A stretch of 64,000 nucleotides of DNA, from NCBI GenBank assembly GCA_951406725.2, contig OX597816.1:44268001-44332000 (forward strand). Reading direction: 5' to 3'. This document shows, in pieces, positions 1 to 56,589 of the stretch. Numbering within the stretch: the first letter of the stretch is position 1; every line of letters begins with the position of its first letter. The stretch is from Octopus vulgaris. Taxonomy: Eukaryota. The translations under genes and the position numbers were made by a program. The notes below the pieces were generated by a model. That model was not told where the DNA came from, made no database searches, and saw only the letters and a list, made by a program, of their open reading frames with translations.

Positions 1-221
1 TAAAATTTGCCATTTAGGCATTTACAAAGAGGGGACAAACAAGGACAGACAAATATAAAGGGTGAAGTAGCTTAACACAGTTACAATTTTCGAATGAAAT
101 TACGGATAAGATTATAAACAATGAATTTTACGAAGGCAATGTTTAAAAATATTAATGATCATGTCGAAGGACGGACACCCAGTCATCCGGGTAGAACCTT
201 TACTTTCTGATCCGGTCACAC

Positions 222-3200
222 TTACCTGGTGCCAAACATACCCATCTTGTATGCCACAGGCTTCCATCTTTTCACAAACATATCTCGTGACAGACACCTC
301 TTCTCCAGCCTGATTTTGCTACTGAGGTGGTAACTAAAAAAGTTAATCAACCCCTGGCCGGAGACAAAGGTGCCTGTCACTATACCTTTCGTACGCGTCT
401 TCCATACTGTTTCTTTCAGTATGGCTACTACACAGAAAAAACAAGCCTTTCTTTCCCTGTTAAGGAAAGGGGGCGGCACAATCTCGATGATAGACTCAGC
501 TGATAGCTGTACTCTTCCCATCACTGATAACAGTTGTTCAACAAAAGCTATCAGTCCCGATAACTCCGGACACTCCACGAATGCGTGCAAGACGGTCTCC
601 CTATCCTGCTCACATCGCGGGCATGTCGGCGAGACGGCACTACCGTGCCTTGACAGCTTGTCGCGAACAGGTAAAGCCGCACGGAAACACTGCCAGGCCA
701 GGGATTTCTGGTAATTATCCAGATACCCCGGCCCGAACGTCCTCCGGAACAGGTTGACCAACTGATTTTCATCGTAGCCCAGGGTCTCCCCCAAGGCTTC
801 TTCGGACTTAATCTCCACTAACCCGCTATAGAAATCCGTGGTGGAACTCCTGTTGCCGGCGTTGCCCACCCGAGATAGTAGCTGGAGCGCCTGACGGCAC
901 TCCAAATGCCATTCACTCAGTTTAGGTCTCCGCTTGATCCATGCACCGATGTCCGTTAGGGATGTTAACTGGGGAAGGTAGAACCGGACGTGCGGTGACC
1001 ACACCTGCTCTCCATCCAGGTAAAGCCAGAGGTGCCTCAACCTTAACGCGAGTTTTCGCATCCTCAGCCAAGGTATCCCTAGTCCACCCTTTAGCGGTTT
1101 CTGGCAGCAGACAGAGCGCTTTACAAGTGGCTTTCCTCCTTTCCACAAAAATCGGAAAAGGATTCTCTCCAACTTGTTCAGCCATAAATCGGGGCAAGGC
1201 ACCACGGTCAGACGGTAGGTGATTACTGATGCTATAAACATCTGCACCACCTCTGTCTTCCCTAGCAGGGATAACGCCCGCCCAGACCAGGTCTGGGTTA
1301 GAGCGGTCACCTTGTTGGCCACCTCACTCCAATTTTTCTCAATCTGGAGGTCTGGCCCGAACCAGACTCCGAGCAGCTTAACAGGACCTTCCGTCCAACG
1401 CCCTACGACGTTATTGGACGGCATCGGCTTGCCCCTCCAGGTGCCGAGTTACAAACCGACCGACTTGTCCTTGTTAACCTATGCTCCTGCCACCGCCTCG
1501 TAGCTTTTGATGGCCTCTTCCACCACTGGAAGCTGGCCTTCGTCTGCCACGATGATGGAGGTGTCATCCGCATACGCCGTAGCTCCTCTTCCACACCATA
1601 GATCATGCGGCGCGCCCCCTAGTGCCTCCAACTTCCGCAGCAAAGGCTCAAGAGCCAATACGTATAGGAGCGAGGACAGGGGACACCCTTGACGAACTGA
1701 ACGCTCGATCCTGAACGGCTTAGAAAAGGAACCGTTCACCTTGACTACAAACTCGATGTCGCTATACAAAGCAGCGATCCAGCCTCGAAAGGTCGGGCCT
1801 AGGCCAGCCTCTCCGAGGACCGCCGCCAGGTACCGATGGTCGACCCTATCAAATGCTTTGGACTGGTCTAAATGTACCAATGCTCCCCCTGCGCCAGAAA
1901 GCTTCCCCACCCTCTCTAAGGAGTAGCGTATAAGGTGGAGATTGTCGTGGATCGTTCTGCCGGGGATAGCGCACGTTTGCGCATCCCCGACAAGTTTGTC
2001 CACGACCCGCGCCAACCTTTTTGCTAGCACCTTGGCCAGAATCTTTATCTCTGTGTTTAACAGAGTTATGGGCCTGAAGTTCCCTATCTCGTCCCCCTTG
2101 TTCGGGTCCTCCCTGATCAACGTCACCGCCCCCGGCTCGCAGACTTGGGAATTCTCCCATTCTGCTGCCAGTTGGCGTAGACGCTAGCCAGCAGGTGCCC
2201 GAACAAGTCTGGCATACTTCTATAAAATTCATAGGGCAGACCATCGAGACCCGGCGACTTCTCCCTGGGGCACTTGCCCAACACCTCGATTACTTCCTCG
2301 GCTGTGATTGGCCCTTCACAGCACTCAGCCTCTCGTGTCGAGAGGCGCGGGCCACCAGACAGGAAGTCCCTAAGGGCCTCACCATGATCCAGCGTCCCGC
2401 ACCTCCCGAACAACTCGGCGAAGTGCTTGTGAAGTGCCTCACACATCTCGTCCCGCTTCTTGATCGTGCATCCGTTTTCATCAACAAGAGACCCAATTGT
2501 GGCATCGTTTCCACGCTGTGTTTCTATCGTACGGGCCCATCCGGCAACATTAATTCCCTCACGGCCCAATGCTCGTACTTTAGCCCGGACTCTACATCCC
2601 TCATGTTTGGTTTTGAGGTGACGGTCTAATGCCGTTCTCGCCGCTAAAATGTGAGATGCAGAGCCCAACCTCAACGCCTCCTCTAAGTTCTTAACTAGTT
2701 GCCCTTCTATTCTAGCCCTATCTAGTCTTAGTTGTTTACTAAATCTAATGGACTCGAATCGAATGGCTCTTTTGAGGGTGAACCACCACCGGTTATTAAC
2801 CACGGCTCCGGTTAACGCCCTCTGCACTAACACCTTAATCCGGCTACGGTATGCCTCGCGTGTCAAAATAGACTTGTTCAGCTTCCAGTAGCCGGTTCCT
2901 ATCTTAAATGTGCTATCTATGTCCAGTCTACACGTGACCATTCTATGGTCAGTATAGGGCACCTGGACGAGCTGTGGACAACTGAAACTAGACTTATCTC
3001 TAGTTCTTATCACTATCCTGTCTAGGTAAGACTTGAACCTTCCGTCGCCACTCATCCAGGTCCACTCTGGGACGTTCGGATGGTCAAGTCTGTAACGATC
3101 TGCCAGCTGAAACCGCTTAAGCAGATCCACGAGACGTGAGTTCACTTTCCTATAGATCGAGCCAACGCTATCGATGTGTACGTCAACGATAGCATTAAAG

Positions 3201-3622
3201 TCCCCTAATATCACTAAAGTCTTCGACGTCACGAGAAAGCCCTCTAGGCGCCGATAAAAATCAGTTTGGAAGCCTCTAGCACAAGGTGCATATAGTCCGA
3301 TCAACCTGAAGGCCTTACTGCTGTATGTCACATCAAGGACGACCAGCCCACCTTCTGGGTCTACATAGACTGTACTTGTCTGTAGAGCCAAGTCTTTACG
3401 GATCAGTACCACTACGCCCCCTCGCCCTCCGGTCTGGCCAGGAGACATGATTTTCTCGTAGCCATTTAGGAGAGGCGAGAAGGTTTGTAGGCTGTCCAGC
3501 TTGGTCTCTGTAGCAACCATCACATGTATATTATGTGATCTGAGGTCGTCGAGGAAACAAGCCTGCTTCCACTTCGAACTCAGACCACGCACATTTAAAC
3601 AACCAAGGTTAAGCGAAGCCAT
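222..3622 (-). CDS. Tx1 ORF2 (APE endonuclease, reverse transcriptase, CCHC finger), split by two frameshifts near 2125 and 1480
   Basis: ORF 2123-3622: LNVRGL, ATETK, GDFN, LDR, TDH, GYWKLN, KSPGLDGLPYEFY. ORF 1479-2126: NFRPITLLNTEIKILAKVLA, LDQSKAFDRVDH, RQGCPLS, AYADD. ORF 222-1424: KLLGVWFG, GGLG, CPRC..ETVLHAFVEC. Confidence 0.93.
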
Positions 3623-3639
3623 TACAAAAAGTAAAAGTT

Positions 3640-5063
3640 CTACTTACGTTTCGTTGGAGAGGTGGGGGCCGACCTCGCCACACGTTTGTGGGCCCCTTCT
3701 TTCTCCTCTTTCTTCAGATAGTCCGGCAAGTTCGCGATATGCCGGATGGCGTTTGGGTGTCTGTCTTTTAATTGTTTGAACGTTGTTTCCGCAATCCACG
3801 CGTGTCTATTTCGATCTTTGTATTCGTTGTACAGTCTTGCTGACTGATGCTGAACCACAATATCGTTTATGTATTTGTCTTGTGTGTCGAATTCAATTAA
3901 TATGAGTTCATTTTCTTTTTTGTTTTTTTTTCTGGGCCAGTTGAGCGGGATTTTTTTTCCGTGTCTGTTGTGTGTCTTTGTTTTTATTACTTTTTGTAGG
4001 GGATGTGGACGGGGATGCTGCACGAATTCTTTTACGAACTGGTGTAAATCACCCCTCTGATACCTCCATGGTATCGTCTGGGGTGGCAATGGTTTGTTCG
4101 GTAGGCGCCGCAGTTTTTAGGGGGGTGGGAGGTTTTAATAGTGTAGGGGTTTGTGAGTGCGAGGGCTGGGTTTTTTCTTCAGTCTGTTTTGGGGTTGGCA
4201 CCGTAACAGCGGGAGTGGGATTTTTTGTTTTTGTAGGGGTAGGTGTGTTTGCCAGGGTAGGAACTTTTTTATTATCTGAGGGGCCTGGTGTCTGCGGTTT
4301 CTTTTGCTTGTCGGGACAGTCTACACGAATGTGGCCCTTTTTGCCGCAGGCGTAACAGGTGGGTTTTCGGCCTTCGACCTGTACCCTGAGGGCTACGTCT
4401 CGCCCACGAGCACCCTCTCAGGAAGGAGCTGCAGGTCCTCCGCTGTTCCTTGAATTAATATATTAATGTTACGCCCGAGCCAAAATCGAGGGGTAGAGCA
4501 TATTACTTCTAGTATTTTTATTTTGTCCGCCCTTTTATATAATAGGGCGGCCACTACCTCTACCGGATCGACTTCCGGCGGGGCTTCTACAATCCTGACC
4601 CGGGACGTCCTGCGTCCCCTATAGCTTGGAAAAAGTACCACCTCCTTGGTTTTTAGGGGGTTTACAGAATGCCCGCGGGCCATTTCTTCCCCGAGAAGCG
4701 GACATCCACTGTGCCATATGCCCGTCCCCTGGCGACGTACACGATGTCCTTCCAAATCGGGGACAGGCATTTCTCGATGGTACTTTTTTCAAAGTGTTTG
4801 AACCTTCTGCTTTGTGGACAGAAAGTTTTAAACACTACGGTCCGCTTCTCGGTCTCCACGATACTGGCGGAGGGTGATATTTTAACATCACTACCCTCCT
4901 CTTGCATTTTTTTAAATAGCTCGACGAGCTGGTTGACATCGATATCAATTTTCTCGGTAGCCACTGCGGCTACCTCAGAAAATTTTTTAACATTGCTCTC
5001 CTCAAGAGCACTACTTTCGTGAATAATTTCAACAGACATTATTCTGTTGAAATTAGACAACAC
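3640..5063 (-). CDS. Tx1 ORF1, gag-like nucleic-acid-binding protein with CCHC knuckle; frameshifted
   Basis: Pieces 4662-5063, 4393-4770 and 3640-4089, plus the knuckle VEGRKPTCYACGKKGHIRVDCP read on the minus strand near 4313-4380. Ends 17 nt before the ORF2 ATG. Confidence 0.85.
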
Positions 5064-5445
5064 AAAAATTACGAGTATTGGTTTCCCACAAAACTGGGAA
5101 ACCTATAGAAAGTTTTTCTTCCAAAGTAGTTCAAAAAAGCAGTTCAAAAATTCCAATTCCCACCCCCATTCGGGGGAGGGGCATGAAATTAGTCTGGCAG
5201 GACTATGTATAGTCACGTAAATAAAAAGCCACAGTGGCTAACAGTTCAACGGTAAGAAATTATTCAATTATTTCCCGGTAAAACCGGAGAACAAGACAGT
5301 TCAGCAACGTTTAAAGGCAAATTTTCAGTAGTAGGAATTCAACAATTAACAACACAGCAAAACTCTTACCGGGAAGAAAACGCGTCCACACCGTAGTACG
5401 GTAAGCAAAGTCACTCTTCTGTCAGTGAGGTTAGCAAAGCTACTT

Positions 5446-7445
5446 TATTTTATATAATTTGCCACTAGGGCAGCACACAGAGTAGTAGCTACGGGCTGGA
5501 CAAGGACATTAATGGATGATGGTGGTGGTGGATGAAGATGGTGATGGGAGAAGTCGAAAGCGCCCGCCGACTTTCGCTTCTCTAAAACAATGTTTCAATA
5601 AATACATTTAATAAAATGTTCACAATGATTCAAATTACATAAAAAATGTTCAACAATTCTTCTCGTCAGGTCCCCGAAGCAAATTGTCTTGCCGCCTGCA
5701 GACAACTCTGCGACGACAAGTCGGGGCCTGCAAAGAGAAAGGTAAAGTCTTTCTTTTCAAAGGTCTCTGCGACCCTTGACAAAGTATCTTCTGTTACTTT
5801 TTCCGCAGCTACCTGCGGAGGCCATAACGGACTCCTTGAGCCGACCGTGCCCTTACGCTCTCGGTCACCCAAGCCATTCAAGAATCTTTCCACCTCCTCT
5901 CCCTTGTGGTAAAGGAGGAGAAGCATCTCCTCTTCACAGGGAGGGACTCACACTGCTCCGTCAGTGGCACACTTCCTACTGGCGGAGCCTTGTCCGCGGG
6001 TGGCACACATCCCACCCGCGGCTCCGTCGGCGACACAGAAACGTCAGTCGTCCGACCTCTCCTTTTTCTCCTCCTTCTTTTGGGGGAGACTGCTGACCCA
6101 GGGGACTCCGTCACCAGACACGGGGGATTGCTATCCCCCTTCGCCCCCTGAGCGTTCTTTGGCGGGCAACCATTGTTGCTCGCCTTTCTCTTTCTTTTCG
6201 TGGAGGCAACCTCCTCCACGACTTCCATCGTCTCCCCCTCCAATGAGGGGGCGGCGGGCGCCTTTTCCCCTCTCTGCTCCGGGGCACCACCACGGCCCCT
6301 GGGACAATTCTTCCTGATATGTCCGGGCTTCAGGCACAGGTGACACTTGGGGGGGCGACCCTCGAGTATCACCGGGTACCTGTGCCCAGCCATTCTCAGG
6401 AAGTCCGGGAATTTCATTTCTCCCACGGCTACCGGTGTCCACAGGGTCAAAGTTGCCCTCGACCCCTGCCAGGCGACCGCGGGAGCCACCTTCACACTCA
6501 GCAGTCTGGGTCCGCTATCCCCCAGGCCTCGCCGGATGGTCTTCTCGATCCATTCCGCCTCCGTGCCCGGGGGCAGCCCACACACCCAGGCTCTTTTCAC
6601 TTTTCTGCCACAATACGAGGGGAGGAACAAAATTTCCTCTCCCTCCAGTGGCTCGCTAGCAAATCTGCTAGCTTCCTCGGGGGTACCAAACAGCAACCAC
6701 ACCGTTGCAAATTTAGTCCCACGAGAAATAAATTTTATAGTTGGCAGGTATTCCCCCAACTCTTTCTCTATAGTATTCCTGTCGAAGAGGGCAATGGCTC
6801 CACGCGACCTAGAATAGGTTCGTAGGACCACCGTCCTCTTCTCAAGACTTTCAATCCACTGCTTGGGTGGGACGACCTCCCATTCCAAAGCGGTGGTTTC
6901 TTTTGTTGCCATGTTTTTTGTTTTTTTTTGTTTTTTTTTTATAAATAAATGTATTTAGAATAAAACTAAAAAACGAGAAGAAAAGGAAATCCGAAGAAAG
7001 TCACAATGAAAAAAGGAGAGAGTCAAATAAAGTTGAAAAGAAAGTCAAATAAAGTTAAAAAGAAAGTCAAAAACACAGGAAAATCCTTTTGGCCATTTGG
7101 TACTCCCGGCCTAAATCGAACCAGGATCGCACAACTTCCACAAAAATTGGTGTAAAATTGGTAGTTCTTCACAGCACCATACAATTTTCACAATTCGAAG
7201 ACGGATACGCCCCCAAAAATTTTCTCAGCGAGAAAAATATATCTGCCACATGTCGGCAGAATCAGAATTCTGAATCCAGTAGGACTTCCTGCATGTAAAA
7301 AATAATTCTCAACAAAAACTCCCACTGGACACAGAAAACAGAATCTTATCTTACATGGGGCTTCCAAAGTTTCAATTCAAGACGGCTTCAAAAGCACATC
7401 TTCACTGCTTCAGTAGCAAACACAACACTGACTCGCACATGCGCA
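5446..7445 (-). mobile_element. ORF1-only non-autonomous Tx1-derived retroelement (element 2, about 2.0 kb)
   Basis: Flanked by target copies at 5430-5445 and 7446-7461. Has a 5' UTR, ORF1, a 3' hairpin TGCC-CTAGT-GGCA and an A-rich end. No ORF2 sequence recognisable. Confidence 0.85.
5666..6912 (-). CDS. Gag-like ORF1 of element 2 with CCHC knuckle; probable frameshift near 5920
   Basis: EKRTVVLRTYS, LFLPSYCGRK and LEGRPPKCHLCLKPGHIRKNCP align with element 1 ORF1 (EKRTVVFKTF, LFPSYRGRR, VEGRKPTCYACGKKGHIRVDCP). C-terminus probably continues in ORF 5666-5926. Confidence 0.85.
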
Positions 7446-7461
7446 GTTAGCAAAGCTACTT

Positions 7462-8933
7462 TATTTCAACTATTTTGCCATAAAGGCATTACATAGAGGG
7501 GACACTACAAAAACATGTGGAGACATATAACAATTAAAAATAAAATGATACTGTGAGTGACATGAAAATGAACGTGAGAAAATAAATTAAGTTTATGATA
7601 ACATGCATGATATCTGAAAATGAAATATGAAATATGACGAGTGTGCTACTCACCCCACTTTGAGCAACACCACTCGCTGCCTTTGAGTCTGAATTCTTCT
7701 CTAATCTCTGGTCTAGTCCTCCTTTTTCCATTCTCGCTATCGCTTAAAGACAACTTTCTTTCGCAACCTTTTTCACCGGGGGAGGGGTTTTCTGAATTCT
7801 GTGGTGTCTGCTCTTTTTTCTTTTTCTTTTTTTCTTGTGGGGAAAGGGTGTGGGTGGGTCTGGTGTCTTTATGGGGCGGGTGGGTCTGAGTGGTCTTGGG
7901 TGGGATGGAGTTGGACTGGGGTACAATTTCACACTCAGTGTTCTTTCTTTTCTTCCTCTTCTTACTTCTGCTCTCTGCTACTATCCATTCTACCTCCTTT
8001 CGTCCGTCTTTGTCTTCGTCCTCTTTTTCTTCTTCTTTGTCTCCGCAACTGGTTCATCTATTTTTTCCTCTTTTTCTTCTGTAGGGGGCAGTGTGCTCTA
8101 ATGTGGCCTTTTTGGCCACATTTAAAGCACCGCGGGGTTCTGCCTTCTACCCATACTCTCAGTACCATTTCTCCCACTGACACCGTTTCCGCCAAATTTT
8201 CCAGCTCCTTCGCCTCCGCTTGTATGGTCATTTCCAGTAATTTTCCTTTGTAACTTCTTTCCTCTGTCTCTGTGGCTTGGAGGACAGTCACCTCCTCACT
8301 TCCAACGAGGACGGCTGCCGCAACCCAAGCCACCTTTATGTCAGGTGGAATTCCTTCTACCCTCACCTTAGAATTTTTTCTTCCAAGATAAGAGGGTAGA
8401 AGCACCAGTTCCTCAGCTTTTACGGTTGCACTTGCCAGCCTCCTCGCCTCCTCCTCTGTTTTAAACTGGACAACCACCGTCCCATATCCGCTTCCGTTTG
8501 CTATGTATGTTACTTCGTTCGAAAGCCCCTTTTTCTATTTTTTCCATATTCATCTGCTCCACTCTCCTACTCTCCACTGAGTGCACCTTGTAGGTGATGG
8601 TTTTCCTTTCCATATTCACCATGACCGTTTTCGGGGGTAGTAACTTTACGTCACTTCCCACCTTCTGTGTCATCTTATACAGCTCCTTCAGTTCAGTCAG
8701 GTCCACTTCCTTTCTCTTCACTCCCGCCGCGTCAGCAAAACTCTTCATTTTCTCCAAATGTTGGTCCATCCTGTTCACCGCCTTAACGAGCTCCTCCTCA
8801 GATGTGGACAGCTCGTACTCGCTAAGGTCCGAATACATTATTTTCCACTCGCCAACAAACCGCTGGCGAGCAGCTCAAAGGATTCTGTCCGCCTAGTCAA
8901 AACTTGACACAGTAAACAACTCGACGCATGCGC
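7462..8933 (-). mobile_element. ORF1-only non-autonomous Tx1-derived retroelement (element 3, about 1.47 kb)
   Basis: Flanked by target copies at 7446-7461 and 8934-8948. About 95-nt 5' UTR, ORF1, and 3' tail GTCCCCTCTATGTAA-TGCC-TTTAT-GGCA with an A-rich end. No ORF2. Confidence 0.85.
7744..8838 (-). CDS. Gag-like ORF1 of element 3; frameshifted; C-terminal boundary uncertain
   Basis: 8461-8838 (KSFADAA..GSDVK..ERKTITYK..SRR..IEK) aligns with element 1 4662-5063. 8058-8477 has LLPSYLGRK and VEGRTPRCFKCGQKGHIRAHCP. Confidence 0.83.
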
Positions 8934-8971
8934 GTTAGCAAGCTACTTACCACACAGCCACTCCTGCGCCT
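8934..8971 (-). mobile_element. 5' head of tRNA-derived SINE family A, interrupted by the Tx1 array
   Basis: Reverse complement AGGCGCAGGAGTGGCTGTGTGGTAAGTAGCTTGCTAAC matches the start of SINE copies at 52811, 30897 and 42133 (minus). Confidence 0.9.
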
Positions 8972-10129
8972 ATGTTTATTAATTTTTAATGCTTACTGAC
9001 AAACCTACGTATTGCGGAAGAGAATTGATATAATAATAGCAGGTACTGAATTATATGAAATAGTATTAAGTGATGAGAGTTTATACCATTAATAGGGTTA
9101 GCTTCATTTCATAAACATGGTTTCGTGTCCCAGCAGTATTTACATTTATAATGGTATATTCAAGCTTCGAATTATTTTTTTTTCTTTGTTTCTTTCTTGC
9201 TTTTTTTTTTGAGGGGGCGGAGAATGAAGTTAGACTACCCAGTCATACACAAACAGACACATGTTAACAGACATAGATGTTAACTCAAACACACACACAC
9301 ACGCAAAACTAACTCTAAAATATCTATTTTATTGTACACTGTCACAGCTATCTATTTAAGATTTCATCTTCTTGATGTATTCTAACGAAAAGCAATATTT
9401 TTTTTATGTGTATGTACGTGTATGCGTGTATGTGTATTCGTGTTGAACACTAACTGGAGCAAATTGTTTGTTTAAGTACCTACTAAATTGTCAGTCATCC
9501 TCTTCGGACGCATGAAGAGACCAGATCTTTACCTTGTCCAATTAAAAGACGTGTATATGTTTCCTCGTGATAGTAAAATACATTCCACTTGCTGCAATTA
9601 AGTGCACAATCTCTCAGCCAGCAATATACGCGTCGGTCGACTCATGAAGTGTAATTAGATTTTCGGGCTCAAGTTGGACCTGTAAAACGCTTTATGCACA
9701 TATAACAAGAACAAAATTGAACGACCAGCATCGTATTGCAGAAGTTAGGAGGAGCGAAACGAAAGTTTGCATCGATAGCCAGGCAGTAAAATCTGCAATA
9801 TTTCGATTATGTTATTAGGGTCCAGTTCACGTGAGCCCACGGGTGAATGCAGAAAAGAAAAATAGGCTTCCAAGCGAAAAGTATGAAGATAGAGCAATGG
9901 CTTGGAAAAGTAGTCGAAGAGGATCCTCGCAGAGTCTATGGCTGAAGCAAGTGACTGATATGTGTGAGTGTGGCGACAATGGGTTGTTGTATCTGAGGCT
10001 GTTGACCTTCAGCCATGAGGATGGACAACATCCAGCTCCTCTTTATCACTGTAAATATATATCATGCAAACAGGTTTCAAAGAAAAAAGACTACACGTGG
10101 CATATAGTAATAGGGGAAAAGTAAAAAGT

Positions 10130-15984: not shown

Positions 15985-16311
15985 GAGGTCAACACTCATT
16001 TTGAATAAATTTTACACAAAGTTGGTTTAATGAAAAGACATTACATGACAGTAGTAGTAGTAGTAGTAGTAGTAGTTGTTGTTGTTATTGTTGTTGCTAA
16101 GCAACAAGACGGGTAAGAGTGATTAGGTGATGCGCTAGGGCTTAGGGGCAGGAGACCCCAGACCCTGGGGAAAAAAGCAACTTTGGTCGTCTTGTTGTAG
16201 TCGAGGGCTCTTCGTTGACGCCCGACACCACTGGGAGGTGGCCCTCGAAGTTGGTTTAATGAAAAGACATTACATGGCGGTAATAGTAGTAGTAGTAGTA
16301 GTAGCAGTAGC

Positions 16312-16356
<45 letters not shown>

Positions 16357-16586
16357 TGTTGTTGTTATAGTTGTTGCTAAGCAACAAGACGGGTAAGGGT
16401 GATTAGGTGATGGTCTAGGGCTTAGGGGCAGGAGACCCCAGACCTTGGGAAAAAAAGCAACTTTGGTCGTCTTGTTGTAGTCGAGGGCTCTTCGTTGACG
16501 CCCGACACCACTGAGAGGTCAACACTCATTTTGAATAAATTTTACACAAAGTTGGTTTAATGAAAAGACATTACATGACAGTAATA

Positions 16587-16633
<47 letters not shown>

Positions 16634-16812
16634 TGTTGTTGTTGTTTTTATTGTTGTTGCTAAGAAACAAGACGGGTAAGGGTGATTAGGTGATGGTCCA
16701 GGGCTTAGGGGCAGGAGACCCCAGACCTTGGGGGAAAGAGCAACTTTGGTCGTCTTGTTGTAGTCGAGGGCTCTTCGTTGACGCCCGACACCACTGAGAG
16801 GTGGCCCTCGAA
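15985..16812. repeat. Three tandem units of about 230-300 bp containing (AGT)n/(GTT)n microsatellite
   Basis: aagttggtttaatgaaaagacattacatg...gggcttaggggcaggagaccccagacc...gacgcccgacaccactg recurs three times. Confidence 0.9.
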
Positions 16813-17946
16813 GTCGCTGGAAATGGAGATCTCCAGGTTTAAATTCTTGAACAGCTGCTGTTGCTTCTGGAGATTAGCCCCCAAATGACCTGTGATAAAA
16901 TTCAATCCAGCCATGATTATTTGCTGTAAGTGCCAGACCTTGTGTTCAGTGGACTATATTATGTCCACATTTTTTTTATTACGATTGGACGTGAGTTGGA
17001 GTGGTTATTTCCTGCGCGTACAACGAGATAGAAGTTTCCTCGATTGTTCTTAGAAGCGAAAGATTTCTAAAATGCAGAAGGCCATTATATACCATAATCG
17101 CATAAAATTCCTCTATATGCAGAACAGAAATTGAAGAACATGAACCTTTGATGTCTGCAATAGACATGTAAGGACAATGTGGTGGAAATTTGAAGATGTT
17201 TAGTAAAATATGAATTATAATTGCTATAAAATCGAGACATAGCCATATGCCAAACATGGTAATAAGCCAGAGATTAAAAATATTAAAACTTGTTATATTT
17301 ATCCTTATTATTGTCTTACTACGAGAGTATAACCCGCCATATAACGGGTGATGATGGCTTTTACAGAAATAAGTGCATATTTGCAACAGTCGTTATCTTG
17401 CGTATATTAAAATTCTACGTTGCTGGCGTTTATACAAAATAGCGGGATGAAGACTAATTTTTAAAGTATAAATTATTTATTAGATTAAAATGAGGTGAAA
17501 CGAATTCCTCATTTGTAAATTTGCAATAAATATGCGTAATGAATAATAATTATATTGCTTGACTATCATGTAAATAGTGAACCATACAGACTAATTCCAT
17601 ATAAGGTAGCATAACATTTTTAGAGTGACAACGCACCCAACAATTGAATATCATTTCCAGTAATAACGGATATTTAATACATTCTCATTCTCTATCTTAC
17701 TCCCTCTTTTACACTCTCTGTCCTTCTTCTTCTTCTCTCTCTCTATCTCTCTGATAATGACATAACAAATAGAATTACGCGCATGATCTACTACTTTGAA
17801 CTGTGAACACACACATACATACCGCATTAAACTCCTCATTCATACTGTATGTATGTATATATATATGTATATATATATGTGTGTGTGTGTGTGTGTGAGT
17901 GTATATATATATATGTATACATATATACATATATATGTGTGTTTAT

Positions 17947-24424: not shown

Positions 24425-24880
24425 GGGCTGCGAGCTGGCAGAATCGCTAGCTTGCTGGGTATAATGCTTGGTGATATCTCGCCCTTCTATATTCTGAATT
24501 CAAATTCCGCCGAGGGGTTGATGAAATAAGTACTGGGGTCGATTTAATCGTCTTATCTGCTCCCCAAAATTTCCAAAATTTGAAACCGATATTAAGCTTG
24601 CTGGGTATAGTGCTTGGTGATATCTCGCCCTTCTATATTATGAATTCAAATTCCGCCGAGGGGGTTGATGAAATAAGTACTGGGGTCGATTTAATCGTCT
24701 TATCTGCTCCCCAAAATTTCCAAAATTTGAAGCCGATATTAAAGACGTATATAAGTCAGCAGAATCGTAAGCATGCGAGACAATGCTTAGGGGCAATTCA
24801 TCCGTTTTTACGCTACGAGTTCAAACTACACTGGTGTCAACTTTGCCTCTCATCCTTTCGGGGTCGATGAAATACATACC
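24425..24880 (+). mobile_element. Diverged SINE B-type fragments with an internal duplication of about 147 bp
   Basis: gcttgctgggtata..gcttggtgatatctcgcc...ccccaaaatttccaaaatttgaa..ccgatattaa occurs twice, followed by a further Nin-like core. Confidence 0.75.
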
Positions 24881-25684
24881 AGTTGATTACTAGGGATGAT
24901 GTAACCGACATACCCACTTCCTCAAAATTGCTTCATACTCTACAACGACCCGGTCTTCTGATGTTTTCTCTCGTTTGTATCTATTAATGCATTTCTATCC
25001 ATTAAACTCTTTCTGTGTCATTGCTGGCAACAGTGAAAAGAAACAAAATCTTCCTTTTCCCCCTCTGTATTTCTTCCTTCAGTTGATTACTAGGGATGAT
25101 GTAACCGACATACCCACTTCCTCAAAATTGCTTCATTCTCTACAACGACCCGGTCTTCTGATGTTTTCTCTCGTTTGTATCTATTAATGCATTTCTATCC
25201 ATTAAACTCTTTCTGTGTCATTGCTGGCAACAGTGAAAAGAAACAAGATCTTCCTTTTTCCCCTCTGTATTTCTTCCCTCAGTTGATTACTAGGGATGAT
25301 GTAACCGACATACCCACTTCCTCAAAATTGCTTCATACTCTACAACGGCCCGGTCTTCTGATGTTTTCTCTCGTTTGTATCTATTAATGCATTTCTATCC
25401 ATTAAACTCTTTCTGTGTCATTGCTGGCAACAGTGAAGAGAAACAAAATCTTCCTTTTCCCCCTCTGTATTTCTTCCTTCAGTTGATTACTAGGGATGAT
25501 GTAACCGACATACCCACTTCCTCAAAATTGCTTCATACTCTACAACGACCCGGTCTTCTGATGTTTTCTCTCGTTTCTATCTATTAATGCATTTCTATCC
25601 ATTAAACTCGTTCTGTGTCATTGCTGGCAACAGTGAAAATAAACAAGATCTTCCTTTTCCCCCTCTGTATTTCTTCCTTCAGTT
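24881..25684. repeat. 200-bp tandem repeat, 4 copies
   Basis: agttgattactagggatgatgtaaccgac starts at 24881, 25081, 25281 and 25481. The unit begins inside a SINE 3' part. Confidence 0.95.
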
Positions 25685-30615: not shown

Positions 30616-30895
30616 TATATATATACACACACATTTATATTTATAATATATCGTTCTTTTCCTTGATATATTGTTTTAGAACGTTTAACATCCAAACCGC
30701 CAAGGATCGGCTAGAGAAACCGAAATAGCAACCAAAATCTCTTTCATCACTCGTACTTGTCATACGAAACGAAGAACACATTGAATAATATAATTCTGAT
30801 TATATATGTTTCTACACAGAAACAACTGCAAATGCTCAAATATCCAATAGCAATTGTTCTCTTCCATTACAGGAATATAACAGAAACACTAACAT

Positions 30896-31075
30896 AGGTG
30901 CAGGAGTGGCTGTGTGGTAAGTAGCTTGTTTACCAACCACAAGGTTCCGGGTTCAGTCCCACTGCGTGGCAACTTGGGCAACTGTCTTCTACTATAGCCT
31001 CGGGCCGACCAAAGCCTTGTGAGTGGATTTGGTAGATGGAAACTGAAAGAAGCCCGTCGTATATATGTATATATG

Positions 31076-31111
<36 letters not shown>

Positions 31112-41915: not shown

Positions 41916-41968
<53 letters not shown>

Positions 41969-42133
41969 TACGACATGCTTCTTTCAGTTTCCGTCTACTA
42001 AATCCACTCACAAGGCTTTGGTCGACCTGAGGCTATGGTAGAAGACACTTGCCCAAGGTGCCACGGAGTGGGACTGAACCCGAAACCATGTGGTTGGTAA
42101 ACAAGCTACTTACCACACAGCCACTCCTGCGCC
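41705..42133 (-). mobile_element. SINE family A, full length, uninterrupted target site
   Basis: Reverse complement of the 30896-31324 family. Confidence 0.9.
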
Positions 42134-42419
42134 TTTTATATCCTTTTATATCCTGGTTTATATCCTCTTTCTAAGAAATTGAGGAGAGAAGACGTATCAA
42201 TAGAAATATTTGATTCTTGATGAAAGATTATGTTTGATTCCGATTGAAAGTGAACTCAAAGTGTAGAGAGCGAGAGCAAACGCCACAAGTTTCTAATGAT
42301 TCTGTCATTTCGCTTCGTTTTTAGCTTCTGCAGCAGAAGGGAAAGTACAGACATAGTCTCCAGCCACAGTCGGTGTTTATAACGTTTAGAATTAGTCATA
42401 AAGGAAAATGTTTAGTTCC

Positions 42420-45386: not shown

Positions 45387-48300
45387 TGTTATATTGCAAT
45401 ACTACACAGTGGCTGTGTGAGCTACGAAATCCTTGTCGCCACTTATATCGCAATACTACACAGTGGCTGTGTGAGCTACGAAATCCTTGTCGCCACTTAT
45501 ATCGCAATACTACACAGTGGCTGTGTGAGCTACGAAATCCTTGTCGCCACTGTTATATCGCAATACTACACAGTGGCTGTGTGAGCTACGAAATCCTTGT
45601 CTCCACTGTTATATCGCAATACTACACAGTGGCTGTGTGAGCTACGAAATCCTTGTCTCCACTGTTATATCGCAATACTACACAGTGGCTGTGTGAGCTA
45701 CGAAATCCTTGTCGCCACTGTTATATCGCAATACTACACAGTGGCTGTGTGAGCTACGAAATCCTTGTCGCCACTGTTATATCGCAATACTACACAGTGG
45801 CTGTGTGAGCTACGAAATCCTTGTCGCCACTGTTATATCGCAATACTACACAGTGGCTGTGTGAGCTACGAAATCCTTGTCGCCACTGTTATATCGCAAT
45901 ACTACACAGTGGCTGTGTGAGCTACGAAATCCTTGTCGCCACTGTTATATCGCAATACTACACAGTGGCTGTGTGAGCTACGAAATCCGCGTTGCCACTG
46001 TTATATCGCAATACTACACAGTGGCTGTGTGAGCTACGAAATCCTTGTCGCCACTGTTATATCGCAATACTACACAGTGGCTGTGTGAGCTGCGAAATCC
46101 TTGTCGCCACTGTTATATCGCAATACTACACAGTGGCTGTGTGAGCTACGAAATCCTTGTCGCCACTGTTATATCGCAATACTACACAGTGGCTGTGTGA
46201 GCTACGAAATCCTTGTCGCCACTGTTATATCGCAATACTACACAGTGGCTGTGTGAGCTACGAAATCCGCGTTGCCACTGTTATATCGCAATACTACACA
46301 GTGGCTGTGTGAGCTACGAAATCCTTGTCGCCACTGTTATATCGCAATACTACACAGTGGCTGTGTGAGCTACGAAATCCTTGTCGCCACTGTTATATCG
46401 CAATACTACACAGTGGCTGTGTGAGCTACGAAATCCTTGTCGCCACTGTTATATCGCAATACTACACAGTGGCTGTGTGAGCTACGAAATCCTTGTCGCC
46501 ACTGTTATATCGCAATACTACACAGTGGCTGTGTGAGCTACGAAATCCTTGTCGCCACTGTTATATCGCAATACTACACAGTGGCTGTGTGAGCTACGAA
46601 ATCCGCGTTGCCACTGTTATATCGCAATACTACACAGTGGCTGTGTGAGCTACGAAATCCTTGTCGCCACTTATATCGCAATACTACACAGTGGCTGTGT
46701 GAGCTACGAAATCCTTGTCGCCACTGTTATATCGCAATACTACACAGTGACTGTGTGAGCTACGAAATCCTTGTCGCCACTTATATCGCAATACTACACA
46801 GTGGCTGTGTGAGCTACGAAATCCTTGTCGCCACTGTTATATCGCAATACTACACAGTGGCTGTGTGAGCTACGAAATCCTTGTCGCCACTGTTATATCG
46901 CAATACTACACAGTGGCTGTGTGAGCTACGAAATCCGCGTTGCCACTGTTATATCGCAATACTACACAGTGGCTGTGTGAGCTACGAAATCCTTGTCGCC
47001 ACTTATATCGCAATACTACACAGTGGCTGTGTGAGCTACGAAATCCTTGTCGCCACTGTTATATCGCAATACTACACAGTGGCTGTGTGAGCTACGAAAC
47101 CCTTGTCGCCACTGTTATATCGCAATACTACACAGTGGCTGTGTGAGCTACGAAATCCTTGTCGCCACTGTTATATCGCAATACTACACAGTGGCTGTGT
47201 GAGCTACGAAATCCTCGCCGCCACTATTATATCGCAATACTACACAGTGGCTGTGTGAGCTACGAAATCCTTGTCTCCACTGTTATATCGCAATACTACA
47301 CAGTGGCTGTGTGAGCTACGAAATCCTTGTCGCCACTGTTATATCGCAATACTACACAGTGGCTGTGTGAGCTACGAAATCCTTGTCGCCACTTATATCG
47401 CAATACTACACAGTGGCTGTGTGAGCTACGAAATCCTTGTCTCCACTGTTATATCGCAATACTACACAGTGGCTGTGTGAGCTACGAAATCCTTGTCGCC
47501 ACTTATATCGCAATACTACACAGTGGCTGTGTGAGCTACGAAATCCTTGTCTCCACTGTTATATCGCAATACTACACAGTGGCTGTGTGAGCTACGAAAT
47601 CCTTGTCTCCACTGTTATATCGCAATACTACACAGTGGCTGTGTGAGCTACGAAATCCTTGTCGCCACTGTTATATCGCAATACTACACAGTGGCTGTGT
47701 GAGCTACGAAATCCTTGTCGCCACTGTTATATCGCAATACTACACAGTGGCTGTGTGAGCTACGAAATCCTTGTCGCCACTGTTATATCGCAATACTACA
47801 CAGTGGCTGTGTGAGCTACGAAATCCTTGTCGCCACTGTTATATCGCAATACTACACAGTGGCTGTGTGAGCTACGAAATCCTTGTCGCCACTGTTATAT
47901 CGCAATACTACACAGTGGCTGTGTGAGCTACGAAATCCTTGTCGCCACTGTTATATCGCAATACTACACAGTGGCTGTGTGAGCTACGAAATCTGTCGCC
48001 ACTGTTATATCCTTACACAGTGGCGCACGAAACTGTTATATCGCAATACTACACAGTGGCTGTGTGAGCTACGAAATCCTTGTCGCCACTGTTATATCGC
48101 AATACTACACAGTGGCTGTGTGAGCTACGAAATCCTTGTCGCCACTGTTATATCGCAATACTACACAGTGGCTGTGTGAGCTACGAAATCCTTGTCTCCA
48201 CTGTTATATCGCAATACTACACAGTGACTGTGTGAGCTACGAAATCCTTGTCTCCACTGTTATATCGCAATACTACACAGTGGCTGTGTGAGCTACGAAA

Positions 48301-51300
48301 TCCTTGTCGCCACTGTTATATCGCAATACTACACAGTGGCTGTGTGAGCTACGAAATCCTTGTCTCCACTGTTATATCGCAATACTACACAGTGGCTGTG
48401 TGAGCTACGAAATCCTTGTCGCCACTGTTATATCGCAATACTACACAGTGGCTGTGTGAGCTACGAAATCCTTGTCTCCACTGTTATATCGCAATACTAC
48501 ACAGTGGCTGTGTGAGCTACGAAATCCTTGTCGCCACTTATATCGCAATACTACACAGTGGCTGTGTGAGCTACGAAATCCTTGTCGCCACTGTTATATC
48601 GCAATACTACACAGTGGCTGTGTGAGCTACGAAATCCTTGTCGCCACTGTTATATCGCAATACTACACAGTGGCTGTGTGAGCTACGAAATCCTTGTCGC
48701 CACTGTTATATCGCAATACTACACAGTGGCTGTGTGAGCTACGAAATCCTTGTCGCCACTGTTATATCGCAATACTACACAGTGGCTGTGTGAGCTACGA
48801 AATCCTTGTCGCCACTGTTATATCGCAATACTACACAGTGGCTGTGTGAGCTACGAAATCCTTGTCGCCACTATTATATCGCAATACTACACAGTGGCTG
48901 TGTGAGCTACGAAATCCTTGTCGCCACTGTTATATCGCAATACTACACAGTGGCTGTGTGCTACGAAATCCTTGTCCCACTGTTATATCGCAATACTACA
49001 CAGTGGCTGTGTCCTTGTCGCCACTGTTATATCGCAATACTACACAGTGGCTGTGTGAGCTACGAAATCCTTGTCGCCACTGTTATATCGCAATACTACA
49101 CAGTGGCTGTGTGAGCTATCGAAATCCTTGTCGCCACTGTTATATCGCAATACTACACAGTGGCTGTGTGAGCTACGAAATCCTTGTCGCCACTGTTATA
49201 TCGCAATACTACACAGTGGCTGTGTGAGCTACGAAATCCTTGTCGCCACTGTTATATCGCAATACTACACAGTGGCTGTGTGAGCTACGAAATCCTTGTC
49301 GCCACTGTTATATCGCAATACTACACAGTGGCTGTGTGAGCTACGAAATCCTTGTCGCCACTGTTATATCGCAATACTACACAGTGGCTGTGTGAGCTAC
49401 GAAATCCTTGTCGCCACTGTTATATCGCAATACTACACAGTGGCTGTGTGAGCTACGAAATCCTCGCCGCCACTGTTATATCGCAATACTACACAGTGGC
49501 TGTGTGAGCTACGAAATCCTTGTCGCCACTGTTATATCGCAATACTACACAGTGGCTGTGTGAGCTACGAAATCCTTGTCGCCACTGTTATATCGCAATA
49601 CTACACAGTGGCTGTGTGAGCTACGAAATCCTTGTCGCCACTGTTATATCGCAATACTACACAGTGGCTGTGTGAGCTACGAAATCCTTGTCGCCACTGT
49701 TATATCGCAATACTACACAGTGGCTGTGTGAGCTACGAAATCCTTGTCGCCACTGTTATATCGCAATACTACACAGTGGCTGTGTGAGCTACGAAATCCT
49801 TGTCGCCACTGTTATATCGCAATACTACACAGTGGCTGTGTGAGCTACGAAATCCTTGTCGCCACTGTTATATCGCAATACTACACAGTGGCTGTGTGAG
49901 CTACGAAATCCTTGTCGCCACTGTTATATCGCAATACTACACAGTGGCTGTGTGAGCTACGAAATCCTTGTCGCCACTGTTATATCGCAATACTACACAG
50001 TGGCTGTGTGAGCTACGAAATCCTTGTCGCCACTGTTATATCGCAATACTACATAGTGGCTGTGTGAGCTACGAAATCCTTGTCGCCACTGTTATATCGC
50101 AATACTACACAGTGGCTGTGTGAGCTACGAAATCCTTGTCGCCACTGTTATATCGCAATACTACACAGTGGCTGTGTGAGCTACGAAATCCTTGTCGCCA
50201 CTGTTATATCGCAATACTACACAGTGGCTGTGTGAGCTACGAAATCCTTGTCGCCACTGTTATATCGCAATACTACACAGTGGCTGTGTGAGCTACGAAA
50301 TCCTTGTCGCCACTGTTATATCGCAATACTACACAGTGTCCCACTGTGTGAGCTACGAAATCCTTGTCGCCACTGTTATATCGCAATACTACACAGTGGC
50401 TGTGTGAGCTACGAAATCCTTGTCGCCACTGTTATATCGCAATACTACACAGTGGCTGTGTGAGCTACGAAATCCTTGTCTCCACTGTTATATCGCAATA
50501 CTACACAGTGGCTGTGTGAGCTACGAAATCCTTGTCGCCACTGTTATATCGCAATACTACACAGTGGCTGTGTGAGCTACGAAATCCTTGTCGCCACTGT
50601 TATATCGCAATACTACACAGTGGCTGTGTGAGCTACGAAATCCTGTGTGAGCTACGAAATCGCCACTGTTATATCGCAATACTACACAGTGGCTGTGTGA
50701 GCTACGAAATCCTTGTCGCCACTGTTATATCGCAATACTACACAGTGGCTGTGTGAGCTACGAAATCCTTGTCGCCACTGTTATATCGCAATACTACACA
50801 GTGGCTGTGTGAGCTACGAAATCCTTGTCGCCACTGTTATATCGCAATACTACACAGTGGCTGTGTGAGCTACGAAATCCTTGTCGCCACCCACTTTATA
50901 TCGCAATACTACACAGTGGCTGTGTGAGCTACGAAATCCTTGTCGCCACTATTATATCGCAATACTACACAGTGGCTGTGTGAGCTACGAAATCCTTGTC
51001 TCCACTGTTATATCGCAATACTACACAGTGGCTGTGTGAGCTATGAAATCCTTGTCGCCACTATTATATCGCAATACTACACAGTGGCTGTGTGAGCTAC
51101 GAAATCCTTGTCTCCACTGTTATATCGCAATACTACACAGTGGCTGTGTGAGCTACGAAATCCTTGTCGCCACTGTTATATCGCAATACTACACAGTGGC
51201 TGTGTGAGCTACGAAATCCTTGTCGCCACTATTATATCGCAATACTACACAGTGGCTGTGTGAGCTACGAAATCCTCGCCGCCACTATTATATCGCAATA

Positions 51301-51346
51301 CTACACAGTGGCTGTGTAAGCTACGAAATCCTTGTCGCCCCTGTTA
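45387..51346. repeat. Satellite array, 56-bp unit, about 106 copies
   Basis: Unit TGTTATATCGCAATACTACACAGTGGCTGTGTGAGCTACGAAATCCTTGTCGCCAC, with 54-bp and substitution variants and no unique spacers. Confidence 0.98.
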
Positions 51347-51754
51347 TGTCGCTCGTTCGAATGCCTTCTACTCAACTCTACTCTCCTCCTCTCCACTCTA
51401 TATCTACGTATTGGGCTAGCCTACTTCATCGACTGGGGGCGTCCACACAACAGTAAGTCACTGCAAGACTGCTTTGCTCATGGTTTTTACCAATCACCAT
51501 CAAAATGAAAATAAAAACCAGCAACAACAATAACAACGACGTTGGTGGCAACATCATCAACTAAACAAGAGCGACAAAGATGCCTACAAGAACATCAACA
51601 ACAATGCGAACCACAGCAAGATTACAGATATATACTTAATATTTATGAGTGTGCATCATACGGCAAAGGTAACACATTTCATACGATAAAGCTTTGCATG
51701 TCGAAACATGCACCATATTTCTGTGCGGGAGCTTGATATATATATAAATATATA

Positions 51755-51788
<34 letters not shown>

Positions 51789-52810
51789 TGTGTGTCTGTG
51801 TGTATATATATGTATGTTTGTGCTTGCATGCGTGCGTGTGTATCTGCCGCGCGCGTGCTTATAGTATTATGCTTCGATGGATAATTGATGTTTTACTTAA
51901 GAGTAGCCTATGTAAATCCGAGTATGTTGCTACAGTACTAAGTTGACAATTTAAATCATGTATTGGAAAGTTCATTGAATAATAGATAACTTCCTGTTCA
52001 CACTTTGACAGGATGTCGTAGATTCGAATTTTGAGATTACACCGAAAACGGAGAGGTGCAGTGTGATATGATAAAATTACGAGAGTAAATAATGGGGACA
52101 GGTGATCTGTTGTTTAGTCGGATACTCCAAAGGTGTTACCTAAATCTATTGAGAAATCTCCGGCTAATTTGTGATAAGAAAATCGATTCACATAATATAC
52201 ACACCTAGCATTCTATGAAGTTCTTCCAGGTACAGACAAAACGGTCGGTGTGATGCAGGTAGTTTTTGTTAGGACAGGTAAAGGTAATGATCTGGGAGAG
52301 GAAGCGGTTAGTGTGGCAAAGTAGACAGGGGATGGAAAGATCTAGATCAGGTGCGGGAGAAGAGAGGTGTCACGAATCAGTAGCTCTTGCAATTTGTGGG
52401 CATAATCAAAGGAGAAAGATATAAATTGCAAAAGAGGCAGGAACTAGCGAGATCGGACGGTAGTTTTGTAGAATCGAAGGGCAGTGTACAGGAGAGGTTA
52501 GATATAGGAGTTGTAAATGAAGAGGAGGGAAGACAGTTGTTTGTGAGGTAGCTATAAGTTAAATGAGTGGTGATGTGGTTTATTTTGTAGGAAAGTATGA
52601 GGGCACCTTGGAGTAAGGTCGGGTTACACTCAACTTCTAGTCATTTCAGAACATACGTTCAGAGTAGAATGTAGGGACCATGAGAAGTGGATCGTATACT
52701 CAAAACGGGTTGTCAGACTGTCTGGAATGGTAGAGAGTAAGGGAAATGGAATGTGGATTAGCGGTTAGCGTTTTAGATACAATATAGGTGTAAGAAGGAG
52801 AAAATGCTGT

Positions 52811-53243
52811 AGGCGCAGGAGTGGTTGTGTGGTAAGTAGCTTGCTAACCAACTACATGGTTCCGGGTTCAGTCCCACTGCGTGGCATCTTGAGCAAGTGT
52901 CTTCTGATATAGCCCCGGGCCGACCAATGCCTTGTGAGTGGATTTGGTAGACGGAAACTGAAAGAAGCCTGTCGTATATGTGTGTGTGTGTGTGTGTGTG
53001 TGGTTGTGTGTCTGTGTTTGTCCCCCTAGCATTGCTTGACAACCAATGCTAGTGTGTTTAGATCCCCGTCACTTAGCGGTTCGGCAAAAAAGAGACCGAT
53101 AGAATAAGTACTGGGCTTACAAAGAATAAGTCCCGGGGTCGATTTGCTCAACTAAAGGCGGTGCTCCAGCATGGCCGCAGTCAAATGACTGAAACAAGTA
53201 AAAGAGTAAAAGAGTAAAAGAGTAGAGTAAAAGAGTAAAGAGA
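52811..53243 (+). mobile_element. SINE family A, full length, with an empty Tx1 target AAGTAGCTTGCTAAC at 52834-52848
   Basis: Complete head, microsatellite and tail with (TAAAAGAG)n. Confidence 0.92.
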
Positions 53244-55297: not shown

Positions 55298-55464
55298 GAC
55301 TACTACTACTTACCACTACTACTACGTTCACCTACACTACAACTATCGCCTGAACCGCCAACACCACTGCTAGAACTGCCACCAGCTCAGCTACCTTTAT
55401 AAATGAAATAACTGCTACGGCTGCCAACATCACCTACTACCACTATTACTACTACTTCTACTAT

Positions 55465-55544
<80 letters not shown>

Positions 55545-55567
55545 TCACCACCACCACCACCACCACC

Positions 55568-55609
<42 letters not shown>

Positions 55610-55898
55610 GTACTACTACTACTACTACACCTACAACAACTACTACTACTACCACCACCACCACCACCACCACCACCACCACCACCACCACCACCACCAC
55701 CACTACTACTACTACTACTACAACTGTACTACTACTACTACTACTACTACTTACCACTACTACTACGTTCACCTACACTACAACTATCGCCTGAACCGCC
55801 AACACCACTACTAGAACTGCCACCAGCTCAGCTACCTTTATAAATGAAATAACTGCTACGGCTGCCAACATCACATACTACCACTATTACTACTACTT

Positions 55899-55965
<67 letters not shown>

Positions 55966-56009
55966 CACCACCACCACCACCACCACCACTACTACTACTA
56001 CTACTACTG

Positions 56010-56041
<32 letters not shown>

Positions 56042-56264
56042 ACCACTACTACTACGTTCACCTACACTACAACTATCGCCTGAACCGCCAACACCACTAC
56101 TAGAACTGCCACCAGCTCAGCTACCTTTATAAATGAAATAACTGCTACGGCTGCCAACATCACCTACAACCACCACTACTTCTACTACTACTACTTCTAC
56201 TACTACTACTACTACTACTACTACAACAACTACTACTACTACCACCACCACCACCACCACCACC

Positions 56265-56297
<33 letters not shown>

Positions 56298-56544
56298 GTA
56301 CTACTACTACTACTACTACTTACCACTACTACTACGTTCACCTACACTACAACTATCGCCTGAACCGCCAACACCACTACTAGAACTGCCACCAGCTCAG
56401 CTACCTTTATAAATGAAATAACTGCTACGGCTGCCAACATCACCTACTACCACTATTACTACTACTTCTACTACTACTACTTCTACTACTACTACTACTT
56501 CTACTACTACTACAACAACTACTACCACCACCACCACCACCACC

Positions 56545-56589
<45 letters not shown>

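Follow-up and report, generated by a model that had tools for sequence, protein, structure and literature searches.

A LINE lineage of Octopus vulgaris targets a single site in the head of a SINE and is accompanied by ORF1-only passengers

A 64,000-nucleotide stretch of the Octopus vulgaris genome (assembly GCA_951406725.2, contig OX597816.1, positions 44,268,001 to 44,332,000; hereafter the window) contains three retrotransposons, here called A, B, and C, that lie head to tail on the minus strand at one site within the head of a short interspersed element (SINE). The locus reads SINE head, C, B, A, SINE body, with every part in the SINE orientation. Element A (1–5429, with the final 7 bases outside the window, ahead of position 1) is an autonomous-type long interspersed element (LINE) with two open reading frames (ORFs), a CCHC-knuckle ORF1 (3640–5039) and an ORF2 (222–3622) with apurinic/apyrimidinic endonuclease (APE), reverse transcriptase (RT), and zf-RVT domains. 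Both are disrupted in this copy, ORF1 by frameshift and ORF2 by a split over three frames. Element B (5446–7445) belongs to a 2.0-kb ORF1-only family and encodes 344 amino acids here (5878–6912) and 414–415 in two other copies. Element C (7462–8933) belongs to a 1.5-kb ORF1-only family, frameshifted here but encoding 408 amino acids in another copy. All three carry a TGCC-N5-GGCA motif in the 3′ tail, at 8–20 in A and 7476–7488 in C, where it is annotated as a hairpin, and at 5460–5472 in B (all minus strand).

The units are delimited by one junction word, as a first-pass annotation made from the window alone had claimed. The 16-mer AAGTAGCTTTGCTAAC occupies the B/A (5430–5445) and C/B (7446–7461) junctions on the minus strand. 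The 15-mer AAGTAGCTTGCTAAC, to which the 16-mer adds a junction T, marks the boundary between SINE head and C (8934–8948, minus) and recurs uninterrupted at 52834–52848 (plus) inside an intact SINE (52811–52980, plus). Shuffled sequence yields 0.19–0.63 matches to these words (100 shuffles); the four matches of the 15-mer search were reached by 0/100 shuffles and the three of a looser 16-mer search by 5/100. Beyond C lies the 5′ remnant of the interrupted SINE, its A-box-like part (8949–8971, minus), and positions 8934–8972 match the 5′ end of the intact copy (52810–52848) at 97%. At the opposite end, the DNA preceding the window consists of the element tail, then the 15-mer, then SINE body, the continuation that the annotation had predicted. 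Two further uninterrupted SINEs, both of the GTTTAC subtype, are present at 30895–31076 (plus) and 41962–42134 (minus).

To place this locus in its genomic context, we searched the assembly (2.8 Gb in 227 contigs; loci and contigs are designated L and C with a number). The A sample comprises the first 80 of 109 exact matches to a 25-mer of the A tail, in listing order and irrespective of flanks, and the 30 best loci each were taken for the A 5′ end, B, and C, sets that favor young copies. AAGTAG lies within 1–2 nt of the A 3′ end in 80/80 copies. The sequence that follows is SINE body in 72 of the 80 (71 called automatically and L188 by eye), another element in 5, and other DNA in 3; in two of these (L193 and L223) a 15-mer-like word precedes unclassified DNA, and the third (L230) is an unrelated short repeat. 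A published threshold for target specificity is more than 20% of flanks in one repeat (PMC4494074), against which A shows 72/80 in SINE body and five more in arrays. Upstream, A is preceded by the SINE head at 26/30 loci and by an element tail at 4/30. The motif also follows B at 30/30 loci, continuing into another element (25), SINE body (4), or unclassified sequence (1), and at all 28 of the 30 C loci that reach the tail the motif comes next, intact or decayed, as judged by eye. Exact junctions of tail and 15-mer, with many tail variants, number 993 genome-wide (control 0) in the sense orientation versus 2 in antisense, and both of these sit at the mirror site that the quasi-palindromic target offers. 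At least 87,796 SINE sites, counted as exact 27-mer matches, are empty. The first-pass proposal was that this lineage targets a SINE, with mostly unrelated genomic flanks as the contrary outcome; insertions instead fall on one base in one orientation. We regard a base-precise, genome-wide SINE-targeting LINE system with ORF1-only passengers as virtually certain.

The target at 52829–52850 of the window is itself quasi-palindromic, with GGTAAG and CTTACC exactly complementary in the GCTTAC subtype. The host repeat is short, dispersed, and very abundant, and ends in a simple-repeat tail. Neither ARAGORN nor Rfam models find a tRNA in its head; the head does align collinearly, by local alignment, with tRNA-Thr, -Glu, and -Lys of the same genome (scores 40–41), with the best 7 of 20 tRNAs exceeding all 200 shuffles, and a tRNA origin is plausible on this similarity. 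The collinear alignment would put the nick just after the GG of the D-loop. The insertion site falls between A-box-like and B-box-like motifs, given what we take to be the box consensus, and to that extent agrees with the earlier suggestion that insertion splits the two boxes. True tRNA genes, proposed as possible further targets, do not occur in the 3′ flanks of the 80 A copies; a single tRNA was detected by ARAGORN across loci L001–L231, and the 15-mer occurs in 0/12 own-genome tRNA sequences inspected. A tRNA-Ser(AGA) gene in antisense (L219:5624–5705) lies ~14 nt upstream of an A copy that is slightly truncated and lacks a SINE head. At L042, a tRNA-like 3′ end lies in the 5′ flank, ~10–15 nt before the SINE head. 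U2 was rejected as a present target, being found in 0/80 A flanks; the sole genomic match joining the tail to a U2-like sequence is not a U2 gene (L308:250–340: the same tail and a U2-like 18-mer are followed by unrelated DNA, perhaps where another element begins). Contigs of four public runs contain only repeat-derived joints at the window locus, with no locus-specific bridge for an empty allele or partial arrays. Elsewhere in the window, a 56-bp satellite of ~106 units (45387–51352) carries in its unit AGTGGCTGTGTG, which is also found in the SINE head, and tandem repeats with periods of 280, 147, 200, and 289 bp occupy 16050–16814, 24449–25684, and 55434–56771.

Only A contains the enzymatic machinery. 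Its ORF2 scores above cut-off for PF03372 (APE, N-terminal), PF00078 (RT), and PF13966 (zf-RVT), with a C-terminal zinc motif and the catalytic motifs present, and both ORFs are open in three natural copies (L152, L191, and L194; 466–467 and 1133 amino acids). ORF1 matches zf-CCHC at 23.9 bits (cut-off 20.8); its look-alikes in the Atlas include a ZCCHC3 RNA-binding cluster (0.91, rank 10), and PF23057/8 gave no direct match. B and C, taken in the first-pass annotation for Tx1-type elements like A, do share its site in the stack but encode ORF1 only. Over aligned parts, their ORF1s are 28% (B) and 42% (C) identical to that of A, and both are multicopy, without ORF2, and open elsewhere in the genome: they are separate families, not deletion derivatives of A. 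Several A copies with both ends do carry internal deletions (2.2–5.0 kb; L153, L172, L190, L195, and L225). A, B, and C all end in TGCC-N5-GGCAA..AAATA with no poly(A), and the first bases of the target complete an AATAAA at the element end. Because B and C have the 3′ tail and target in common with A, they were probably moved in trans by a LINE ORF2 protein. Both begin with GCGCATG words, which we presume to be promoter-like. The stability of the tail hairpin is not significant (z −0.6 to −1.7), and, at 8–20 and among the genomic tail matches listed, its loop positions 1 and 4 seem by eye to co-vary (T..A or C..G), a pattern that may reflect two lineages only. Other element families also begin after the same 15-mer (L023, L069, L080, L081, and L086; L068, L099, L100, and L105).

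Thirteen of the 80 A copies touch another element, in 11 arrays. If 1,000–2,000 insertions chose randomly among 31,566–87,796 sites, 1–6% of copies would be stacked. Since 16% are, regeneration of the target by target-site duplication (TSD), to which the first-pass annotation had attributed the arrays, is not a sufficient explanation of them, although the arrays themselves are real. Units within arrays differ by 0.1–2.4% and mix ages. One unit of a contig C10 array is only 0.2% from a unit on another chromosome (contig C1) versus 0.6–0.8% from its own neighbors, and these differences mark the units as independent insertions. Private substitutions amount to 0.07% in C, 0.22% in B, and 0.52% in A in the window, and run from 0.04 to 0.11 to 0.48% in an array on contig C9. 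Among comparisons of neighboring units that differ by at least 0.15%, 8 favor a younger 5′ unit, in a hand count of small numbers across families. We lean toward arrays that grow mostly 5′-ward by preferential re-insertion, and our best guess for the 5′ preference is open chromatin at the promoter of the resident element. Two observations weigh against such growth: two of the comparisons oppose it, showing that polarity is not uniform, and the three A copies of the contig C9 array form one clade (support 0.997), which fits local duplication equally. Arrays of six to eight units, mostly B, lie on contigs C1 (223.69–223.71 Mb), C5 (78.74–78.76 Mb), and C10 (101.17–101.19 Mb).

Arrays could alternatively arise by copying, as read-through concatemers or through unequal crossing-over, rather than by repeated insertion. 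This would account for the contig C9 clade, for B units that are closer within arrays (0.74%) than between them (1.85%), for C/B junctions that recur at three loci, and for extra-T junctions that span the whole of the contig C5 and C10 arrays; the first two leave room for local duplication or for re-insertion in cis. The extra T, however, would also be inherited if new copies entered at the 5′ junction. A copies preceded by B are scattered over the A tree, arrays mix families and ages and include one internally deleted unit, and at L223 a B unit lies upstream of an A copy that is only ~90% identical to the young family. Copying is an unlikely main source of the arrays. A different route to stacking, and to specificity, would be that only a small set of SINE loci is accessible, such as ones occupied by Pol III factors, and is hit through protein tethering rather than by sequence reading. 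If the effective pool comprised a few thousand sites, 16% stacking would result, and selective access might also explain why the GCTAAC subtype supplies 33/41 A targets versus 36% of empty sites (p = 7e-9). Tethering fits poorly, however, with the off-target copy at L230, which entered an unrelated repeat at a look-alike 16-mer, with the rare antisense insertions at the mirror site, and with array growth that mostly takes place at the junction more distant from the B-box-like motif, and we consider it improbable. The A copy at L230 measures 0.5 kb, shows a 16-nt duplication, and lies in a short tandem repeat that resembles the target.

The flanking 15-mers were examined to establish whose sequence they are. 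The 3′ copy varies (GCTAAC, GCTTAC, or GTTTAC, and AAGAAG..TTCC after some other tails), and its variants co-vary with diagnostic bases located deeper in the SINE body. Because it follows the subfamily of the body downstream, the 3′ 15-mer is target DNA. The 5′ copy behaves differently. Two identical standard 15-mers flank 28 of the 53 solo full-length A copies, but in 15 of the 53, position 13 of the target is not A, and there the 5′ copy ends in AAC in 15/15 cases. Since the 5′ copy has the element's version at each of these 15 targets, the 5′ 15-mer is not purely a TSD; it is partly element-derived, and the element probably carries a 5′ leader. The first-pass annotation had treated both words as TSDs and had named, as an outcome that would count against SINE targeting, a 15-mer belonging to the element termini irrespective of SINE context. 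The former stands at the 3′ end and the latter is half borne out at the 5′ end. L216 retains the target's position-8 variant on both sides, and L231 loses it; the switch to element sequence thus appears to fall around positions 8–12.

The junction T provides a second view of the 5′ end. An extra T is present at 7/35 matched and 13/18 mismatched sites (p = 3e-4), and in 6 intact SINE sites versus 31,566 without it. Because it is nearly absent from intact SINEs, the extra T is a junction product; an inherited element variant was ruled out, as the T is scattered over the A tree and tracks target mismatch. The first element base is reached by 66/80 A copies. Truncation shows a related dependence, with target positions 10–15 matching in 38/53 full-length versus 1/7 truncated solo copies (p = 0.006; five copies with no recognizable 5′ head, L166, L208, L217, L219, and L222, were left out of the truncated-copy counts). 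If both 15-mers were ordinary TSDs and arrays formed only because the TSD restores the site, the 28 identical pairs would be expected, as would the true duplications of ~15–16 nt that three truncated copies (L160, L214, and L230) have made of their own targets. Yet in every one of the 15 informative pairs the two copies differ in favor of the element's version, which contradicts this account at the 5′ junction, and the stacking of 13/80 exceeds its expectation, leaving it very unlikely. Although most copies are flanked by SINE head and body, we give next to no credence to a single SINE–LINE composite amplified as a unit, or to an assembly artefact: near-identical elements sit in SINE bodies of different subfamilies, the head (1.9%) and body (3.7%) have more mismatches than the element's first bases (0.5%), and 5′-truncated copies that still follow an intact SINE head refute it. 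An origin of the whole head from the donor was rejected as well, because its mismatches resemble those of target DNA.

The explanation that best accounts for these observations, and that we hold to be likely, is that an L1-group and probably Tx1 radiation inserts by target-primed reverse transcription at one SINE-head site, with an element-carried leader, passengers mobilized in trans, and arrays extended 5′-ward. In this scheme, the ORF2 protein would make its bottom-strand nick at GGT^AAG, or a single base beyond, and would cut the top strand up to ~15–16 nt downstream. The element RNA would start inside the upstream 15-mer, around positions 8–11, so that the end of the cDNA could anneal to the top-strand overhang and prime the second strand. 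Matched sites would yield clean full-length insertions, and mismatched sites an element-version junction, an extra T, or truncation, the T being a non-templated base or the result of slippage when annealing fails. The penalty for mismatch would bias the family toward the matching SINE subfamily. The ORF1-only B and C would travel in trans via the common 3′ tail, and new copies would prefer the 5′ junction of an occupied site, probably beside the element promoter in open chromatin. Several points count against this scheme. Duplications of only 0–10 nt in five truncated copies (L154, L157, L162, L167, and L178) indicate that the top-strand cut is not fixed. The pre-insertion sequence is read from the 3′ copy, the nicking sites, RNA start, and chromatin openness are deduced from sequence, and the subfamily bias could stem from the endonuclease instead of from annealing.

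Because A combines APE, RT, and zinc domains with an RT closer to L1 than to R2-type elements, its sequence assigns it to the L1 group among retrotransposons without long terminal repeats (non-LTR): its ORF2 matches human L1 ORF2p over residues 6–870 with an E value of 1e-66, versus 1e-19 or weaker for R2 proteins. Membership in Tx1 is likely. A CCHC-knuckle ORF1 in place of the mammalian L1 type is, as we understand it, a Tx1 feature. The nearest named relative of ORF2, from Argonauta hians, is 63% identical over the RT region; searches of proteins, representatives, and clusters returned no named Tx1 sequence, only hypothetical proteins (Argonauta, Patella, Branchiostoma, and others). Among metagenome relatives, 40 of 55 loci were scanned with Rfam, and two were found to terminate in U2 at the Keno-type position (L256:4675–4885 and L259:5815–5977) and one in U1 (L275:9202–9356), which fits a Tx1 neighborhood. 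A U2 5′ piece is also present near the element start at L259:107–134. In a tree of 57 mostly unnamed relatives, deep support is weak and the octopus lineage does not stand beside the U2/U1-ending relatives. The SINE and U2 sites agree at 12–13 of 18 aligned bases (post hoc p of 3e-4 to 2e-3), and the C tail resembles U2 stem-loop I (p 8e-4, but 0.03 for B and 0.13 for A). Older tails lie on the AAGAAG..TTCC SINE subtype, and older junctions carry matching leaders. We offer tentatively the possibility that the lineage left a Keno-like U2 target for a look-alike SINE site and followed the turnover of SINE subfamilies, re-acquiring its leader as an annealing guide, with occupied sites as preferred landing pads for autonomous and ORF1-only families alike.

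The tail is not exclusive to the SINE-targeting elements. Against over-GENERALISING, a loose tail pattern gave 2,162 matches (control 19), with AAGWAG following in 1,292. Of the first 20 listed tails without AAGWAG, 6 are SINE-associated (1 in antisense), 3 are chance or unrelated matches, and 11 belong to a sister group, defined by tail and flank, in which the same hairpin is followed by AAT/ATT-rich sequence (L312, L314, L315, L318, L319, L321, L322, L324, L325, L327, and L328). In several of these loci, the AAT/ATT tract precedes an apparent second SINE family. The TGCC-N5-GGCA tail, suggested in the first-pass annotation as a probe for genomic copies, is present on A, B, and C, but belongs to a broader lineage that has two or more targets.

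Targets on record for Tx1 elements include piggyBac, Mariner, Harbinger, LTR elements, U2, U5, 5S, satellites, and microsatellites (PMC4494074). Those that target transposons are Tx1L in Tx1D, Tx1-Mar in Mariner-N4_AMi, Tx1-9_AMi in Harbinger, and Tx1-8_Crp and Tx1-4_AMi in LTR elements, and tandem Tx1 insertions parted by a TSD are described, for example, for SINEU-3 (PMC4494074). The octopus system resembles these in that an APE-RT LINE prefers another transposon, has a non-autonomous partner with the same target, and inserts in tandem (PMC4494074); it differs in that the target is a SINE, hit at one base-precise site rather than in two regions, and in that the partners are ORF1-coding instead of snRNA-headed (small nuclear RNA) and the elements are young, with open copies. 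Keno, a U2-specific Tx1, has the same ORF2 architecture as A (PMC4494074, PMC4640811), and the two U2-terminated relatives noted above stand at 29% identity. Unlike Keno, the octopus lineage has a different target and no poly(A), and the tree does not group it with the U2-ending relatives.

Among ribosomal DNA (rDNA) elements, R1 makes a 14-bp TSD, has precise 3′ ends, and forms arrays that grow at the 5′ TSD (PMC2718515), and for melanogaster-type R1 and many R2 elements, target sequence borne on the RNA has been proposed to anneal and prime the second strand (PMC2718515, PMC3774820). The octopus elements likewise have precise 3′ ends and arrays that probably grow mostly at the 5′ side, and their proposed annealing of an RNA leader to the target has the same logic. 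R1 and R2, however, belong to other clades, and their homogeneous rDNA hides which bases come from donor and which from target, whereas SINE variants label both in each octopus insertion. HAL1 (half-L1), a non-autonomous derivative of mammalian L1 that codes for ORF1p only (PMC5753468), is a counterpart to B and C, which are likewise ORF1-only, multicopy, and lacking ORF2, with a 3′ tail in common with A; unlike HAL1, they are site-specific, with ORF1s far from that of A. The repeat annotation of Octopus vulgaris counts 421 insertions of 13 recently active L1-Tx1 families, which may include this lineage; the word "target" is absent from the main text of that paper, its supplements and library lying outside the search (PMC13282606). 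The searched text of PMC4640811, PMC5035012, PMC8869645, PMC8967140, and PMC4758252 makes no mention of a SINE as the target of a LINE, and a SINE-specific LINE was not found in the literature searched, to which Repbase, the 2004 Tx1 survey, subscription journals, and supplements did not belong. The target class and the natural labeling of donor and target bases appear to be new, while each mechanical step has precedent.

SINEs usually parasitize LINEs. Here the relation is reversed, with LINEs using a SINE as their address and probably splitting its internal promoter, and the SINE may serve the lineage as a safe harbor. Because the target copies number in the tens of thousands and vary slightly among themselves, every insertion preserves the origin of its bases, whether target or element RNA. 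This makes second-strand priming, a stage of LINE integration that is poorly understood, testable from genome data alone. The young APE endonuclease, with its tight site choice and naturally open copies, is a candidate for biochemistry and possibly for gene delivery in cephalopods. The same arrangement carries a warning for genome annotation, in that repeat libraries in this group will merge SINE and LINE sequence.

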